UHGV virus genome: UHGV-1635749
Direction: 5' to 3' (one strand)
Source of the DNA: a virus
Length of the DNA stretch: 15,654 nt
A model generated the notes under the pieces. It had not been told where the DNA came from. It worked only from the letters and a program-made list of their open reading frames with translations, and made no database searches. Below are positions 3,573 through 15,214 of the stretch, one piece after another. Each line of letters begins with the position of its first letter. The stretch's first letter is position 1. Position numbers and translations under genes: made by a program.

Positions 3573-3926
3573 TTATGCCTCGCTTGTTACAGTCGTCTGG
3601 CCGTAGATTGTGTCAATGGAGGAAGTGAAAGTGACGCGGCGGCTGGTGCCGTCATAATTGGTATCGAAGGAAAGAATCGACAGAACGCCCGGTGTATCCT
3701 GTATGCGTTCGCGTATAGCCAGGATGTAGACATCTGATCGCTGCTTCCCAAGCACTGACTGAACATACGGCGTGCCTTCCGTCAGATCGAGAAACCACTG
3801 ACCGCGCCACAGCTCGAAACGGGTTTTTACGGCCTGGGCGACACATTCCGGACTGTCGATAAGGAAAGTATCGTCACCCTGGCCGAAAGTGTAATCGCCT
3901 TCAGTATCTTCGCGACGGTATCGCAT
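3573..3926 (-). CDS. Baseplate wedge protein, gpW/gp25-like (117 aa)
   Basis: About 115-aa ORF sandwiched between the spike and the J-like gene, the canonical gpW position. Its start overlaps the spike stop. Confidence 0.6.
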   Translation of the reverse strand: MRYRREDTEGDYTFGQGDDTFLIDSPECVAQAVKTRFELWRGQWFLDLTEGTPYVQSVLGKQRSDVYILAIRERIQDTPGVLSILSFDTNYDGTSRRVTFTSSIDTIYGQTTVTSEA

Positions 3927-4666
3927 TATTGCGGCCCTCCAGTAGTTCCCCCGCCTGTCTGAACTCCGCCATGTTTATGCGTGGCGACACTTATACCTGA
4001 AGCTGTCACATCATTCGTTACCGTAACCGGCCCAAGCATCGTCGCAGTACCACCACTTTCTCCCATTCCCTGAGACAGGTTACCGTTAATCGTTACGTAG
4101 CCGTTCAGCGTGATAGTCGGGGATGTGATTGTCGTTCCACCTTCAGCCGTAGCCGTAAGCTGGCCCGGCGTTTTAATGGTGATGTTATGTCCTGCAGCGA
4201 CCTCTACGAACGCCGCGCCATCATCGGTTCGCAGCTGCGCGGCGCTGGTACTGATACCGCTGATTTTCTGTGCTTGCGACTGCGGGCCAACGATGGCGAA
4301 CGCATCAGATAAGTCATGCTGGCGCGGGTCGACGGTCTCCTGAACGCCGCCGCTCTGCCACCAAAAATCGATGCAACGGTCAGCAAAAATCAGGAGGCAC
4401 TCGTCGCCTTCTTTTACCGGAAAGGTCAGCGTGCAACCGCCGCCGCGCGGGAAGATGACCGGCACATCCACCAGCGGTTTTAATTCGGTGGAGTCGTCGC
4501 CAACAATACCGCGAAGCGCCACTTCTACTGTGCAGGTTACAGCGTCAGGATCGAACGACTGAATGATGCCAGGCATCGCCACGCGCATTTGGGTAGACAC
4601 TGAATCGGCAATGGCCTGGGCGGTCTGCTGCTCGCCGCCGATCTGTGATTGAGTTGGAATTGGCAT
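3926..4666 (-). CDS. Baseplate central spike, P2 gpV-like (246 aa from ATG at 4666)
   Basis: The C-terminus ...SVATHKHGGVQTGGGTTGGPQ resembles the P2 gpV C-terminal HTHKH...GGTTGSP motif as I recall it. The ATG at 4664-4666 follows the terminator T-tract with GGGG upstream. The track's longer ORF (to 4840) would read through the terminator and the cassette's 3' end. Confidence 0.75.
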   Translation of the reverse strand: MPIPTQSQIGGEQQTAQAIADSVSTQMRVAMPGIIQSFDPDAVTCTVEVALRGIVGDDSTELKPLVDVPVIFPRGGGCTLTFPVKEGDECLLIFADRCIDFWWQSGGVQETVDPRQHDLSDAFAIVGPQSQAQKISGISTSAAQLRTDDGAAFVEVAAGHNITIKTPGQLTATAEGGTTITSPTITLNGYVTINGNLSQGMGESGGTATMLGPVTVTNDVTASGISVATHKHGGVQTGGGTTGGPQ

Positions 4667-4675
4667 AAAAACCCC

Positions 4676-4702
4676 ATAAAAAAACCCGCTCGGTGGCGGG
4701 TT
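4676..4702 (-). terminator. Rho-independent terminator closing the AT-rich cassette
   Basis: On the minus strand: AACCCGC-CACCGA-GCGGGTT (7-bp stem, 5 GC pairs) followed by UUUUUAUGGGGUUUUU. The stem overlaps the stop codon of the 145-aa ORF; the U-tract runs straight into the spike ATG. Confidence 0.55.
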
Positions 4703-5138
4703 ATAATTTTGCTTCTGGATAACATCTACAGCGACCATCAGGACAACACTTTCCCTCTCCGGGATGACCACTTTTAGGCGGCTTACTCCACGAAAATGTT
4801 TTCCCATTATTTTTAGCGCATTCTGCACACTCGTCACCATCCTCGCAGGAGCGCCAAATATAACGTTTAATACCCAAGCGAGATTGCTTTATCCTCTCTG
4901 CCTCAGAGTGACGACGGCTATTTTCGGCGAGGTGTTCAGCATAGCGCGCGTTATCCTTCTCAATTTCTTCTTTACTTCGCCGCTTCCCATTTGCTGGCTT
5001 TGATTTTTGGTAAGCAACCCGTTTATTTCGATTGTATGATTTAATAATTTCGTCTTCATTTCTACGCTTTTTAAATTTTAAATATTTAACAAATGCAAAA
5101 ACAATTACGAATAAAATAATAATATATGCAGGTTCCAT
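4701..5138 (-). CDS. Membrane-anchored, basic, Cys-rich hypothetical protein (145 aa) in the AT-rich cassette
   Basis: N-terminal hydrophobic helix AYIIILFVIVFAFVKYL followed by KFKKRR (positive-inside). Lys/Arg/Glu-rich middle. C-terminal CEDGDECAEC...GKTF...HPGEGKCCPDGRCRC putative metal-binding motif. ATG overlaps the upstream stop (TAATG at 5136-5140). Strongly AT-rich codons. Confidence 0.55.
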   Translation of the reverse strand: MEPAYIIILFVIVFAFVKYLKFKKRRNEDEIIKSYNRNKRVAYQKSKPANGKRRSKEEIEKDNARYAEHLAENSRRHSEAERIKQSRLGIKRYIWRSCEDGDECAECAKNNGKTFSWSKPPKSGHPGEGKCCPDGRCRCYPEAKL

Positions 5139-5506
5139 TATTTAACCTTTACGCAATCATAAGTTGCATATTGTCTTGGTGCATCCATGCTGGCTTGCAG
5201 CCACTGAGCATTGAGGATAGCTTTTCCGTTTCGCTTGATGTACTCAAGACCAACCCATCGCCCCGGTTGGTTTGTAGCCATACGCCAATCCATTTTTATA
5301 TTTTCGTAGTCTTCTTTTTGTTTCAGAAATGTCAATTTCTGATACTCGGGCTTTGCTCCATTTATGCGAGGAAAGCCGTCATTAGTACCACTCGTTGAGA
5401 AAGTGAAATCACCGCACTTCATATAGACTTTTCCTGCTGCATTTGCACCGGCAGCAGCTGTTAAGCAAATTAAGCCAGAAAATATTCCTGAGATTATCCT
5501 TTTCAT
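5138..5506 (-). CDS. Secreted (Sec signal peptide) hypothetical protein (122 aa) in the AT-rich cassette
   Basis: N-terminus MKRIISGIFSGLICLTAAAGANA-AGK has a basic n-region, hydrophobic core and ANA-A cleavage-type site, with no canonical lipobox. Two Cys in the mature part. ATG (5504-5506) overlaps the hub stop TAA (5506-5508). Confidence 0.6.
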   Translation of the reverse strand: MKRIISGIFSGLICLTAAAGANAAGKVYMKCGDFTFSTSGTNDGFPRINGAKPEYQKLTFLKQKEDYENIKMDWRMATNQPGRWVGLEYIKRNGKAILNAQWLQASMDAPRQYATYDCVKVK

Positions 5507-6570
5507 TAGGCACCCGTTTTCATCAAAGTCGAATCATTAATCAGGGTAGAAGCTCCACGCGCAAAACACATCAAATCCATGTACCACGCTTGACCTCTAG
5601 TGTCACCAGTATAGTCGATAGCCTTGACGATATAAACGCCATCTGTCGCAATGCTGGCAGCCTGTGACGTCGTGCCGGTCAGCACACGGTTGCCGTTCTC
5701 TTCTGTTTCGGTGATACGCCCGGGCGACTGTGCGATTTCGCTATTGCCGAGCGCGGCGCGGTACACCGAAGCCTGATCGAGCTGGATAAGACCATTAATG
5801 CGGATGTTCGGGTTTATCAGGCACCGCACGTTTACGCCGCCGCCCATCGTCTGTTGCGGCATACCGATCAGGCCAGTATCAGCATTCAACACAATGGCTT
5901 CGTGAATATATTTATCCTCCGGCACCATCTGGACATGACCATCCACCAGTTGCCATGTCGCTTTGCACTGCGCAGCAATATTATCCATCACGTTGCGGCT
6001 GGATGAGTAAATCGCGCGGCCACGAGGAAACACGGTATCAGGAAAATCGCCGGTAATGCCCTGTGTCACGCCGAACGCGTTGAAATCCTGCATCGTCGCC
6101 CGGTGCAGATCCGCAACGGTATAGCCAGCGGCAAGCGTGGTGATGGTAGTCGCGTAGAGGAACGCTTCGTGGTTACTGATGGCCTGAATCAGCACCCAGG
6201 AATCCGTAATGTTGTCCTTCCCGGTGACGGTGAAGCGAATATCACCGTCAAATATCAGGCCGTAGTTCTGACCGTTCACCTGCCCTACCTGGTCTGGTGA
6301 AATCTCCCGGGCGACACCAACCTGGCTCGCATCAACATCCGGCGCAATACCGTCATACCCGGCAATGATGCGAATTTTTGCAAACTCCTGCCCCAGTATC
6401 TTGTTCGTGGTATCGGTCGAAAGGTTGTAAATTTTCACGTTTGCCACGCGCGGCCAGCGTGTATCTGCCCACTCGATCTGGAACGTGACCTTAAAATCAG
6501 ACAGGGAAATACCCTGCCCGTTCTGGTCCAACAGCTGCAACTCAAAATGGCGCATCCAGTTAAGAGACAT
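5506..6570 (-). CDS. Putative baseplate hub protein (P2 gpD / Mu gpP position; 354 aa)
   Basis: Size and position downstream of the tape measure gene and upstream of the spike/wedge genes. AGGAG 6 nt upstream of the ATG at 6570. Assigned by synteny only. Confidence 0.5.
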   Translation of the reverse strand: MSLNWMRHFELQLLDQNGQGISLSDFKVTFQIEWADTRWPRVANVKIYNLSTDTTNKILGQEFAKIRIIAGYDGIAPDVDASQVGVAREISPDQVGQVNGQNYGLIFDGDIRFTVTGKDNITDSWVLIQAISNHEAFLYATTITTLAAGYTVADLHRATMQDFNAFGVTQGITGDFPDTVFPRGRAIYSSSRNVMDNIAAQCKATWQLVDGHVQMVPEDKYIHEAIVLNADTGLIGMPQQTMGGGVNVRCLINPNIRINGLIQLDQASVYRAALGNSEIAQSPGRITETEENGNRVLTGTTSQAASIATDGVYIVKAIDYTGDTRGQAWYMDLMCFARGASTLINDSTLMKTGA

Positions 6571-9749: not shown

Positions 9750-10352
9750 TGGCCGCTCTCCATTTATCTACCCGGGCGTCGTTATCCTCGCGCATGTCGA
9801 GGTAGTCATTGAGAAGCGCGATGCGGCAAAGGTCTACCGCACCGCTGTTAAGGTCTTTCTGGTCAATATGGAAGGCAAGCGCCGGACGAAGAATAAAATC
9901 TTCACCGCCCGGCAGGCTGTTGAAGGTTATTCCGCTGGCGGGGTGGGCGTCTCGCTGGTAGGGAGTCCTTGCAAAAAATTTCCCAGCGAGTCGGCGACCA
10001 CCCGCGCCACCAGTTGCAGCATGGTAAGCAGGTCGATATCGTCAAACGCCATTTCGCCATGCTGGCAGACCGGCACCCAGCCTTTCATGTGCTCGCGTGA
10101 AACAACGGAAAGACAGGGGAACAGGATAGCGTCCACGTCGCCATCACTCAGATCGGACACAGCATTGGCAATCTTTGGCAGGATGGTAGCCATCGCGCCT
10201 TCGGTGTCTTTGCTGCTGATCTTCTCCTGAACGCTCCGGAAGTCCGAAACCATCCCGGCCAGAACCGGCAACAGCTTGCGGGACACCTTCAGCTGTTCGA
10301 AAACGCTGAGCTTTGCGGTGCGATATTTCACGCCTTTAATTTCGAATTCCAT
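9739..10352 (-). CDS. Predicted -1 frameshift fusion product of the tail chaperone (about 205 aa; P2 E+E' / lambda G-T analog)
   Basis: The -1 frame is open from the slippery site (plus 9972-9984) for 79 codons (FFARTPYQRD...DKWRAANER) and stops at TAA 9739-9741, overlapping the tape measure ATG (A-ATG-AGC-GGT-AA). Confidence 0.5.
9927..10352 (-). CDS. Tail assembly chaperone (141 aa; P2 gpE / lambda gpG analog)
   Basis: Small ORF between the tube and tape measure genes, ending 178 bp before the tape measure start. That gap is filled by an open -1 frame (see the next two features). Confidence 0.7.
   Translation of the reverse strand: MEFEIKGVKYRTAKLSVFEQLKVSRKLLPVLAGMVSDFRSVQEKISSKDTEGAMATILPKIANAVSDLSDGDVDAILFPCLSVVSREHMKGWVPVCQHGEMAFDDIDLLTMLQLVARVVADSLGNFLQGLPTSETPTPPAE
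9972..9984 (-). other. Candidate programmed -1 ribosomal frameshift site (tandem slippery heptamers)
   Basis: Minus-strand GGGAAATTTTTTG read in frame as ctG-GGA-AAT-TTT-TTG contains G_GGA_AAT and T_TTT_TTG. Both are in the X_XXY_YYZ register relative to the chaperone frame, about 14 codons before its stop. Confidence 0.5.
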
Positions 10353-10806: not shown

Positions 10807-11967
10807 TTAGCGAACCACGTTGATCTGCACATCGGCATAATGAACTGCGCCAGCCAGCTTACAGGCCACCTGAATTAACGGTGCTTTGCGCGCTTCCCGG
10901 TCGGCCTGCGCCTGTTCGGAGAGGGGTTGCGCATACACGTAATAGCCTTTGGTCAGCGTATCGCCGGAATTCAGTTGTCCGATAGGGCCACCATTCCACA
11001 CGCCAGCCGCTACCAGACCGTTCGTGACGGACTGATCCATGGACTGTTCAACGTTGGAAAGCAGGCGGGTCACACCGGCATCAGTCTGCGGAATTTTAGT
11101 GGTGCTGGTGTAAAGCAGGTTATAGAGGTTGGTCTGAACGTAGTTCTGCAACCAGTCGAGCCCGTGGCGCTCGTCGAAGAAGTCACCGTTCGCCATGACA
11201 CCCTGTTGCAGGATCGCCGTGTCGTTGGCGTAGTACACGAACACGTTCGCGTTCTTCGTATCTACCGCAGCCGCCTGACCTAACGTCAGCGTTTCGTAGG
11301 TTACGCCTGGCTCCTGTTTGAACTTCAGGGTAATGGTGGTATTGCTGCCGTTGAAGTTAACAGTGAACGCACGACCGAACGCAGAAGCCGCTGCATAAGG
11401 GCTACTGGTGGAATACTGAATGAAAGTGCGGGAAAACTTGCCAGCCTTTAATTTCGACGCAACATCGGTCATTGAAGTCGTGCTGATAATCCCGGCGTCA
11501 GCAGAGGTCACACCAAAGATACGGCTAAGGCTGGACGCTTCAATAAGTTTGGCGACCTCAATCACGTCATCAGCATCAAGCACATCATCGCCATCAGCAA
11601 CATCATCAGCGACAACCAGCCCATACCAGTTGGTATACTGCAGGCAGGCATTAACAGCTTGCACGATGGTTTCCACGCTTCCACCTTCGGAAGAGGTCAG
11701 CGTCTTCGCCCAGCGGCCAACATAAACCTGCGTCGGCTTCGGTGACTGGCTGAAGAAAACCTGCGCTGCTTTATATTCCGGGCTGTCGACACCGAAGTCT
11801 TCGCCAATGTCCTCAACGGACGCATAAAGGCGAATACGCTCCTGCACCGGAATGACAGTGGAAGAACCGAGGATCAGCAGTGCGCCGAAGTTACGACCAG
11901 TAGCCGCTTTCGGCGAGATGATCACATCAACGTTTACAACGTTGGATACAGGTAAGCCCTGCGTCAT
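10807..11967 (-). CDS. Tail sheath protein (386 aa)
   Basis: Largest ORF immediately upstream of tube-chaperone-tape measure. Size and position fit a contractile sheath. Family membership not verified. Confidence 0.75.
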
Positions 11968-14231: not shown

Positions 14232-14246
14232 TTTCAGTTTCCTTCT

Positions 14247-14262
14247 GGCCCCTTTCGGGGCC
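14247..14262 (-). terminator. GC-rich stem-loop immediately after the putative major capsid gene (possible attenuator or RNA stability element)
   Basis: ggcccc-tttc-ggggcc is a perfect 6-bp GC stem with a 4-nt loop in the 41-bp gap between the capsid stop (14273) and the next ATG (14231). No U-tract follows, so termination would be partial at most. Confidence 0.35.
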
Positions 14263-14272
14263 GTTCTGGTTA

Positions 14273-15214
14273 TCAGATACCGTCCACGTAGGACAGGGTT
14301 TCTTTGTACACTGGCTCAACCGCACCGAGCTTGCCGTAGTAGGTCGCAATCTGATACAGACCGCGATACTGGACAGGAACGCTCTGCAACGGCACCAGCG
14401 GATAGCGCACGTATTTCTTGTCGTTGGTGTAGGCGATCATACGGTCTTTACCGCCAACCCCACGCCCTTTCAGCCATTTGACCGCTTTGATTTCAAGCGG
14501 AACGCCGTTCTGGTGGAAAGCGATAGTGTTCACAGCCAGATAGGTCAGCAGTGACTGGTTACCCGCTTCGGAAACCTTACGGCTCGCCAGCAGTGAATAC
14601 TGCTCTGGCGGAATGCGCAGATCAGAAGGCACGATGGAATAACCGGATGCTGCCCAGGCATTAGACAGAATGCTGTTCACGCTATCGAGGATCTCGTCGT
14701 TGGTTGAGTTCGCCCAGGTCTTCGGCGCGTTGTTCAGCGTCACACCGACGAGGTTTGCCAGACCTTTCAGGCCGAGCGCATCATCGCCGATGTAAACCTG
14801 CTCGTCGTTGTCCATCTGCCATTTGAGCTGCATCCCGTCGTACTTCTGGGTATCAATCGGGCGGCCTACCTGCTGAGCTGCTGCCAGCTCTACAACGGTC
14901 CAGCCCAGTTCCATACCCCAGAGGTTCAGTGGATTGCCGTCTTTGCTGATATCCACGTTCACGCCAGCAATAGCGGTGGAGTCTTTGCCTACCCAGTTTT
15001 TACCATTCGGATTTGCGCCAGTACCAGCAGCGCCAAAGCTGGTGTTAGTCCAGCTGGAAATGTCATCTGCGATAGACACGTCTTCACGCAGCTGAATATC
15101 GCGGGTCCAGGTGTAACCCACCAGCGGCAGGTTCAGCGTCTGGTCGAGTCGCTCCAGCTCCCCGATGAGAAAGGCACCAGAGCTATCAACGGTTGCCTGA
15201 TCAAAAGTAATCAT
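14273..15214 (-). CDS. Putative major capsid protein (313 aa)
   Basis: About 310-aa ORF following a small structural-type ORF and preceding the neck genes, with a GC hairpin right after its stop. Assigned by size and position only; no motif recognised. Confidence 0.5.
   Translation of the reverse strand: MITFDQATVDSSGAFLIGELERLDQTLNLPLVGYTWTRDIQLREDVSIADDISSWTNTSFGAAGTGANPNGKNWVGKDSTAIAGVNVDISKDGNPLNLWGMELGWTVVELAAAQQVGRPIDTQKYDGMQLKWQMDNDEQVYIGDDALGLKGLANLVGVTLNNAPKTWANSTNDEILDSVNSILSNAWAASGYSIVPSDLRIPPEQYSLLASRKVSEAGNQSLLTYLAVNTIAFHQNGVPLEIKAVKWLKGRGVGGKDRMIAYTNDKKYVRYPLVPLQSVPVQYRGLYQIATYYGKLGAVEPVYKETLSYVDGI

Follow-up and report, generated by a model that had tools for sequence, protein, structure and literature searches.

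Morons are accessory phage genes, bounded by a promoter at one end and a terminator at the other, which are expressed in the lysogen (PMC3851460; PMC2629481; bioRxiv 10.1101/2024.10.15.618418). Those of phages HK97 and HK022 are treated by Juhala et al. (2000), as cited in bioRxiv 10.1101/2024.10.15.618418 and PMC3851460. The division of phage hotspots into terminator-bounded units is by now a general finding (bioRxiv 10.1101/2024.10.15.618418). Two aspects of lambdoid phage biology are of direct relevance here: (i) the Q protein allows RNA polymerase to move past terminators (PMC3851460); and (ii) lambda-like regulation is also found in SEN34, a plaque-forming Brunovirus with myovirus morphology (PMC5261728). 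In P22, the ant moron is flanked by gene 16 and gene 9 (tailspike), and it is believed to influence the frequency with which late transcription extends into the latter (PMC2629481).

The locus described here belongs with these systems. The window (i.e., the whole stretch of DNA that was analysed, 15,654 nt in length) contains structural genes only, every one of them on the minus strand, and its source is best explained as a SEN34-like (Brunovirus-like) prophage, lambdoid and with a contractile tail. Between the genes for the baseplate hub and the baseplate spike there is a slot with two small genes, at the end of which a hairpin followed by a T-run stands directly against the spike start codon. 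In our opinion, this hairpin is probably a Rho-independent terminator which ends an accessory-gene (moron) slot and which is read through by Q-modified polymerase during lytic growth.

Genetic organization of the hub/spike region

On the minus strand, the genes that precede the slot encode a tape measure protein with an SLT domain (9749-7482), a Dit-like protein (7482-6880), a baseplate plug (6878-6573) and a baseplate hub of 354 aa (5506..6570; phrog_196 baseplate hub, 2.2e-82, the match to E217_GP41 being weak). The hub gene forms the left border of the slot, and its stop codon overlaps the ATG of an accessory gene (5138..5506, minus strand; phrog_3443, 3.1e-42) whose 122-aa product has, as read from the sequence, an apparent signal peptide. 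There follows an ORF for a protein of 145 aa (4701..5138, minus strand), the variable cargo gene, with a TAA stop at 4703-4701. The C-terminus of the 145-aa protein is Cys-rich, and a hydrophobic stretch at its N-terminal end was likewise read from the sequence; the similarity of the protein to Phage_Mu_F / SPP1 gp7 is only sub-threshold in Pfam, NCBIfam and PHROGs. PADLOC returned no match for either of these two window genes. Their base composition is unlike that of their flanks, as is expected of a moron, since G+C amounts to 41.7% in the 122-aa gene and 39.5% in the 145-aa gene vs 53.4% in the hub gene and 56.8% in the spike gene.

The baseplate spike gene (3926..4666, minus strand) encodes a protein of 246 aa with a gpV-type N-terminal domain (spike N-terminal domain, 1.9e-41) and an apex motif (GpV Apex, 6e-9), which matches TIGR01644 phage_P2_V above the cut-off and is named "phage baseplate assembly protein V" by PGAP in relatives. 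It is followed by a 117-aa gene (gpW-like, the sheath initiator in relatives) and by genes for Baseplate_J, DUF2612 and a tail fibre. A start of the spike gene at 4666 is supported by comparison with its relatives: the same 741-nt gene is annotated by PGAP in ten E. coli relatives, and tblastn matches of the spike protein begin at residue 1-3, the DNA upstream of that point being unrelated between loci. A 304-aa ORF that runs through the hairpin, and which might be taken for a longer spike, is in consequence ruled out as the gene. For annotation purposes, the spike start should thus be placed at 4666 and not at the upstream in-frame ATG.

Structure of the hairpin

The terminator hairpin (4683..4702, minus strand) was recognized from the sequence, from folding, from a consensus scan and from covariation in relatives. 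It consists of a 5' arm AACCCGC (4702-4696), a loop CACCGA (4695-4690) and a 3' arm GCGGGTT (4689-4683), that is, a stem of 7 bp (5 G-C and 2 A-U) and a loop of 6 nt. The U-tract (4676..4684, minus strand) is formed by seven T (4684-4678), an A and a T. It is followed by the ribosome-binding region of the spike gene (4664..4675, minus strand), composed of GGGG (4675-4672), TTTTT and the ATG (4666-4664). Read on the minus strand, the whole junction is TAA-CCCGC-CACCGA-GCGGG-TTTTTTT-AT-GGGG-TTTTT-ATG. The AA of the TAA stop pairs with the two T that open the run, hence stop and hairpin overlap by 2 nt, and 16 nt separate the end of the stem from the spike ATG. The GGGG is a Shine-Dalgarno-like sequence which belongs to the spike gene itself and lies within the U-rich tail. 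The original prediction, made from the letters of this DNA, had described a GC-rich 7-bp stem with a U-tract that overlaps the stop codon and stands against the spike start, and the sequence bears it out on each point.

The folding energy of the 27-nt element (4676-4702), proposed at that time as a check, is not negligible: it reaches -10.7 kcal/mol vs a shuffle mean of -3.9 +/- 1.9 (z = -3.55), none of 200 shuffles folding as well, and the hairpin is retained in the MFE and centroid structures of 51-nt and 91-nt contexts. A consensus scan for terminators gave nine matches on the minus strand of the window, among them one at 4702..4683 with the tail TTTTTTTATGGG, which in our judgement is the only one that is both canonical and intergenic. 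A scan of the whole window against Rfam at gathering thresholds detected no known RNA family, so the hairpin corresponds to no sRNA or riboswitch described to date. All in all, the hallmarks of an intrinsic terminator (a GC-rich 7-bp stem-loop, a short loop and an adjoining U-run) are present. A terminator serving the plus strand is not favoured, given the interruption in its tail on that strand (TTATAATTTT) and the absence of any plus-strand gene from the PGAP annotation of this site in a relative with the same cassette (L002).

Conservation of the hairpin among related loci

When the 3.3 kb surrounding the site were used as query, matches came from 53 E. coli genomes and from Citrobacter phage Omnitron, with a query coverage of typically ~72-84% that falls short because the hub-spike stretch differs between genomes. 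In ten annotated E. coli loci, the gap between hub and spike holds differing genes (Phd/Doc toxin-antitoxin, DUF4236, hypothetical proteins); in all ten, a hairpin with its T-run lies directly 5' of the spike start region, which is kept as ATGG[G/A]GTTTTTATG in the E. coli clade. A scan with the spike protein, taking one genome per species, extended the set by 80 loci belonging to Pantoea, Enterobacter, Klebsiella, Serratia, Photorhabdus, Xenorhabdus, Erwinia, Salmonella and other genera. For each locus, the hub stop and the spike start were located and the last 45 nt before the spike ATG were searched, a locus being counted as positive when it showed a hairpin and at least 5 T; the counts were made with a detector that takes the T-run as its anchor. 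In L071, L073 and L087, A/T pairs extend the stem of the hairpin into the T-run.

Of the 85 related loci (Enterobacterales), 58 were positive, with a hairpin and T-run in the 45 nt that precede the spike ATG. Elsewhere on the coding strand of these loci, the same detector gave 0.0039 hits per 45-nt window, i.e., the spike site is enriched ~175-fold over background. The hairpin is present in 45/45 loci with a cargo-bearing gap of at least 396 nt (396-2817 nt), as is expected for the terminator at the downstream end of a moron, and in 11/14 loci with a gap of 30-86 nt and no gene. It is found in 0/5 loci with a gap of 357-362 nt and, within the 45 nt upstream of the ATG, in 0/18 loci where the hub stop overlaps the spike ATG; five loci have a homologue of the 122-aa gene directly 5' of the spike gene and no hairpin. 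A different arrangement appears in 13 Photorhabdus loci and one Morganella locus with overlapping hub and spike genes, whose first 15 spike codons contain a terminator-like hairpin, with T6-7 and encoding the peptide RPEA[V/P]F[F/L]; the stems of these intragenic hairpins differ between the two genera (AGACC/GGTCT and GGCGCC/GGCGCC). No terminator-like element was found in those loci of Xenorhabdus, Serratia, Izhakiella and Sodalis in which the spike ATG overlaps the gene before it.

The stem itself varies in sequence. At least seven distinct cores occur, all of them complementary, including CCCGC/GCGGG, CCTGC/GCAGG, GCCGC/GCGGC, CCAGC/GCTGG, CCCACC/GGTGGG and GGTCGCC/GGCGGCC. In an RNAalifold analysis of 40 distinct sequences from related loci, double compensatory changes affect four of the six stem pairs. 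The structure is therefore kept while the sequence varies, as in intrinsic terminators, which indicates selection for structure.

These data bear on two further readings. Were the hairpin a chance inverted repeat with no function, one would expect nothing unusual in the number of such sites, and indeed the window as a whole holds 20 terminator-like sites vs 15.3 +/- 4.0 in shuffles, which is no clear excess. But the ~175-fold enrichment over the 85 loci, the compensatory changes in the stem and the z of -3.55 speak against chance, a reading which the comparative data refute and to which we give practically no credence. Alternatively, the stem-loop might be an element of RNA stability or processing which protects 3' ends or marks a processing site without stopping the polymerase. 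The window does contain a second strong hairpin, GGCCCC-GAAA-GGGGCC (14263-14246, minus strand), 3' of a capsid-like gene and devoid of a T-run, which implies that the late operon does use non-terminator hairpins. A pure stabiliser, however, needs no T-run, and a run of 5-9 T follows the hairpin in 58/58 positive loci; such a role at the spike site is most improbable.

Hairpin, cargo and frame

It had also been proposed that the hairpin might be the scar of a self-contained gene-plus-terminator insertion, in which case the 145-aa gene, or the two-gene cassette, would have arrived with a terminator of its own that does nothing for the phage. The cassette's low G+C fits such an origin, and so does the fact that in some relatives the hairpin changes along with the cargo: other alleles (CCAGC, GCCGC, CCCACC) accompany other cargo, CCAGC being found with DUF4236 in L004 and L007, and GCCGC with a 128-aa family in L001, L010 and L051. 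Some cargo therefore brings its own terminator. The allele of the window, CCCGC-C[A/G]CCGA-GCGGG, nonetheless follows at least five unrelated last genes (in the window, L003/L006, L005, L008 and L009), and homology between loci of the E. coli clade stops exactly at the 5' base of the stem, from which it follows that, in this clade, the hairpin belongs to the conserved frame. The comparison with relatives that lack the cassette, which the original prediction had put forward as a check, points the same way, since such relatives keep the hairpin: in 11 loci from several diverged lineages it stands alone, with no gene, in a gap of 38-86 nt. Selection is also indicated by the presence of the terminator in 45/45 cargo-bearing loci, at the same distance from the spike ATG and with compensatory stem changes. 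The idea of a scar was not upheld by these results, and we consider it highly unlikely.

Nor does the cassette behave as one unit, as it had been treated. The 122-aa gene is no part of a mobile cassette: its homologues adjoin the hub gene in 44 related loci, including those with a gap of 360 nt, which makes it a conserved accessory gene and hub neighbour. Only the 145-aa gene stands as variable cargo; among the related loci, it is present only in the window, L002, L012 and L083.

Accessory genes and candidate promoter

Between the 122-aa gene and the hairpin, the 45 cargo-bearing loci hold 74 ORFs from at least 40 protein families. According to Pfam, these include Phd/YefM, Fic/Doc, YafO, HEPN, a superinfection-immunity protein, T5orf172/MUG113, DUF4236 and bPH_2; PADLOC adds PD-Lambda-1, PDC-S42 and PDC-S57. 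The slot is positioned, like a moron, between genes that are adjacent in relatives, and we read its cargo families as genes which are typically expressed from prophages. The cargo types are consistent with expression in the lysogen, without being proof of it.

A candidate sigma-70 promoter for such expression, TTTATA-17 nt-TATACT (5608..5636, minus strand), was obtained as a scan match; it is embedded in the 3'-terminal part of the hub gene and lies ~100 nt ahead of the point where the hub gene stops and the 122-aa gene starts. In the window as a whole, the promoter scan yielded no more promoter-like sites than shuffles. The Thr codon within TATACT is ACT in 30/32 distinct cargo-bearing loci, where all four Thr codons are used at two other conserved Thr positions close by, and the Tyr codon is TAT in 29/33. 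The TATACT motif as such occurs in 27/33 cargo-bearing loci vs 0/28 other loci, and the hairpin-only loci are without it. This pattern suggests a nucleotide-level constraint on TATACT; the codon counts, on which the putative promoter rests, are confounded by relatedness between the loci.

Proposed read-through and antitermination

Relatives with nearly identical DNA downstream carry unrelated DNA upstream of the hairpin. Since hairpin and spike start are identical where the DNA before them is unrelated, a conserved promoter for the spike gene is ruled out. The expectation that expression of the spike, gpW, gpJ, gpI and tail fibre genes needs read-through or an unrecognised promoter held up as regards read-through, there being no conserved promoter between hairpin and spike; read-through would seem obligatory for the spike, gpW-like, gpJ-like, gpI-like and tail fibre genes. 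One conceivable means, occlusion of the stem by ribosomes at the overlapping stop codon, was rejected as a general mechanism: from the ends of annotated CDSs and the hairpin positions, we read a distance from stop to hairpin that varies between ~0 and 40 nt in relatives, so the overlap of stop and stem applies to the window and is not conserved.

The relatives suggest a simpler means. A prophage carrying the same cassette (L092) is lambdoid, with a repressor, replication genes, nin genes and a Q-family antiterminator, after which lysis, head and tail genes follow on one strand. The closest match to the full window (L093, 97.5% identity over 89% of the window) has the same layout, Q-family antiterminator included; its antiterminator gene ends at 9880, and canonical terminators lie ~100 nt and ~1 kb downstream of it (9977-10004 and 10877-10896). 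SEN34 shows the same order of hub, small genes, hairpin and spike, together with a Q-like gene, and, since it forms plaques with this layout, the terminator must be compatible with tail production. In these three relatives, the Q gene lies upstream of one-strand late genes; the window covers structural genes only.

From this we infer termination at the hairpin in vivo, expression of the slot in the lysogen from the embedded promoter, and override by Q. The proposed unit would run from the promoter-like element embedded in the hub gene through the gene of the 122-aa secreted protein and the swap-in cargo (here the 145-aa gene) to the terminator, which would act on unmodified polymerase only. 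In the lysogen, the hairpin would end the transcripts of the unit and so keep the genes for spike, wedge and fibre silent; in lytic growth, polymerase modified by Q at the late promoter would pass the hairpin as it would other terminators of the late operon, and the spike would then be translated from its own Shine-Dalgarno sequence in the U-rich tail.

Possible roles of the terminator without cargo

In P2, V-W-J-I-H-G and FI-...-D are separate operons, and the hub/spike junction would thus be an old module boundary. Contractile tails, for their part, need wedge and fibre proteins in at least as many copies as hub and tape measure proteins. Both points matter for another explanation of the hairpin, namely, that it is an attenuator, in line with the original prediction that it could set the hub-to-wedge ratio: a partly efficient terminator at the border of the tape-measure/hub and spike/wedge/fibre genes which lowers the transcription of the latter in lytic growth and so tunes protein ratios, the cargo having settled upstream of it. 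This would agree with the operon split of P2 at the same junction, with the hairpin being kept in the 11 loci that have no cargo, with the terminator-like hairpin in the 5' coding region of the spike in Photorhabdus and Morganella (where hub and spike overlap), with the persistence of one hairpin allele while the cargo changes, and with the precedent of the P22 ant moron. On the other hand, the direction of the effect looks wrong given the copies of wedge and fibre proteins that are needed, Q-modified polymerase is expected to ignore the terminator (and the relatives carry Q), and the overlapping loci of Xenorhabdus, Serratia, Izhakiella and Sodalis do without any terminator-like element. Taking both sides together, we regard attenuation as unlikely.

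The terminator slot with Q-dependent read-through is thus the reading we retain, with one possible extension. The junction terminator occurs in three layouts: (i) after cargo; (ii) alone in a gap of 38-86 nt; and (iii) inside the first 15 spike codons. The last two suggest a cargo-independent role at the hub/spike junction, and there is a hint that the terminator has a value of its own there, either as an attenuator or as a fail-safe which would tie tail completion to antitermination. It is a tentative idea, and one we would not yet back, that the junction terminator is a selected, cargo-independent feature of the family which, in one large clade, has been joined with the hub-embedded promoter and the 122-aa protein to form a socket. 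If true, such an expression socket would let defence, toxin-antitoxin and exclusion genes be swapped without touching the regulatory elements. Insulation from cargo transcription, for its part, does not explain the hairpin-only loci or the intragenic hairpins of Photorhabdus and Morganella.

Should our main reading be true, a strong terminator before essential baseplate genes would be harmless because the operon is run by a processive antiterminator. The stretch from the hub gene (plus the 122-aa gene) to the terminator would then be a hotspot of SEN34-like prophages of E. coli, Salmonella, Klebsiella, Pantoea, Serratia, Photorhabdus and others, whose uncharacterised slot genes could be mined for anti-phage or exclusion functions. 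From the point of view of engineering, the slot could be a natural payload site with a ready-made terminator. What most deserves experiments is the persistence of the junction terminator across the family, together with the possible hub-embedded promoter.

Comparison with known systems

The closest described parallel is the ant moron of P22 (PMC2629481). In both cases, a lambdoid late operon has, among its morphogenetic genes, a single variable slot that directly precedes a gene for host recognition or penetration; its contents vary and are absent in some relatives; and late transcription must cross it, which in P22 is thought to influence the level of tailspike. The two differ in that P22 is a podovirus, whereas the tail is contractile here, and in their flanking genes. 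The P22 slot also has repressors of its own (Mnt, Arc) and an antisense RNA, and no conserved single hairpin against a start codon has been described there.

The P2 hotspots (Z/fun; old/tin) share with this locus a fixed position beside baseplate or tail genes, a temperate phage with a contractile tail, and cargo of the defence type (bioRxiv 10.1101/2024.10.15.618418). In P2, however, the late operons are separate and activated by Ogr, with the hotspot between operons, whereas the slot described here would sit inside one antiterminated operon and need read-through. The lambda tR'/Q system resembles what is seen in L093, that is, a terminator ~100 nt 3' of the Q gene, more terminators in the late operon, and late genes on one strand. 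It differs in the position of the element, since the hairpin under study is >15 kb into the operon and not at its start, and Q, the site to which it binds and the late promoter are outside the window.

Finally, with the lambdoid morons in general the locus has in common (i) accessory genes of lower G+C placed between structural genes which in other relatives adjoin or overlap one another; (ii) a Rho-independent terminator at the downstream end; (iii) toxin-antitoxin, defence and exclusion cargo; and (iv) a host operon under Q antitermination, to judge here from the Q genes of the relatives. In contrast to those morons, the candidate promoter is located within the structural gene upstream, outside the insert, and the terminator is mostly fixed in the frame instead of being part of each cargo, and it also occurs without any. 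The arrangement is that of a textbook moron and not a new mechanism.

Genes between the hub and the spike

Two small genes separate the baseplate hub gene from the spike gene. The first (5138-5506, minus strand) encodes a 122-aa member of phrog_3443 with an apparent signal peptide, MKRIISGIFSGLICLTAAAGANA. This gene has a low G+C content and adjoins the hub in 44 related loci: it is a conserved neighbor of the hub, located outside the variable cargo.

The second gene (4701-5138, minus strand) is the cargo itself, and encodes a 145-aa protein with a hydrophobic stretch at its N-terminus and a Cys-rich C-terminus. Homologues of this protein are found in two Pantoea species, at 98% in P. stewartii and 51% in P. 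latae. The protein also gave matches, under the curated cut-offs, to the Phage_Mu_F and SPP1 gp7 head-morphogenesis domains; such matches are odd for a small membrane protein encoded in a tail-gene slot.

Promoter-like and hairpin sequences

The sequence scan returned a promoter-like site, TTTATA-17-TATACT (5608-5636, minus strand), which lies inside the hub gene, some 100 nt short of its stop codon. The TATACT hexamer, present in 27 of the 33 cargo-bearing loci vs. none of the 28 others, corresponds to Tyr and Thr codons whose synonymous sites are nearly invariant among cargo-bearing relatives. In these relatives, the Thr codon within the hexamer is ACT in 30 out of 32 cases, whereas the neighboring Thr codons of the hub gene vary freely.

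In Photorhabdus and Morganella loci with overlapping hub and spike genes, a terminator-like hairpin followed by T6-7 is encoded within the spike coding sequence itself, approximately 20-45 nt 3' of the spike ATG (related loci L038, L045-L047, L056, L058-L062, L065, L066, and L069). The peptide encoded at this position is RPEA[V/P]F[F/L]. The stems differ between Photorhabdus and Morganella, with complementarity being kept; this intragenic hairpin was not found in the Xenorhabdus homologues.

A strong hairpin, GGCCCC-GAAA-GGGGCC (14246-14263, minus strand), is located directly 3' of the stop codon of the capsid-like gene (14273-15214). It has no T-run, may be an mRNA-stabilizing or pausing structure, and also occurs in L093 (the closest full-window match).

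Insertion sites and mosaicism in relatives

A further small insertion site was observed between the spike and the following baseplate gene in phage SEN34 (L094, 4256-4497) and in the E. coli relative L008 (4583-4812). In SEN34, the spike stop codon is immediately followed by a hairpin with T5 and then by a 46-aa ORF; in L008, the gap after the spike amounts to 229 nt.

The tail-fiber end of L093 (33196-36064) and of L092 (6010-7934), a prophage with the same cassette, looks like an invertible host-range segment: it has tail-fiber-assembly genes opposed in orientation and, in L093, also a recombinase-family gene. In L092, the fiber region is truncated by IS26. Between these two relatives, which share one structural module, the antiterminator gene of the early region differs: one product has 166 aa ("antiterminator Q family protein") and the other has 260 aa ("antitermination protein"). 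Their replication and lysis genes are likewise different. Such early-region differences are mosaicism typical of lambdoid phages.
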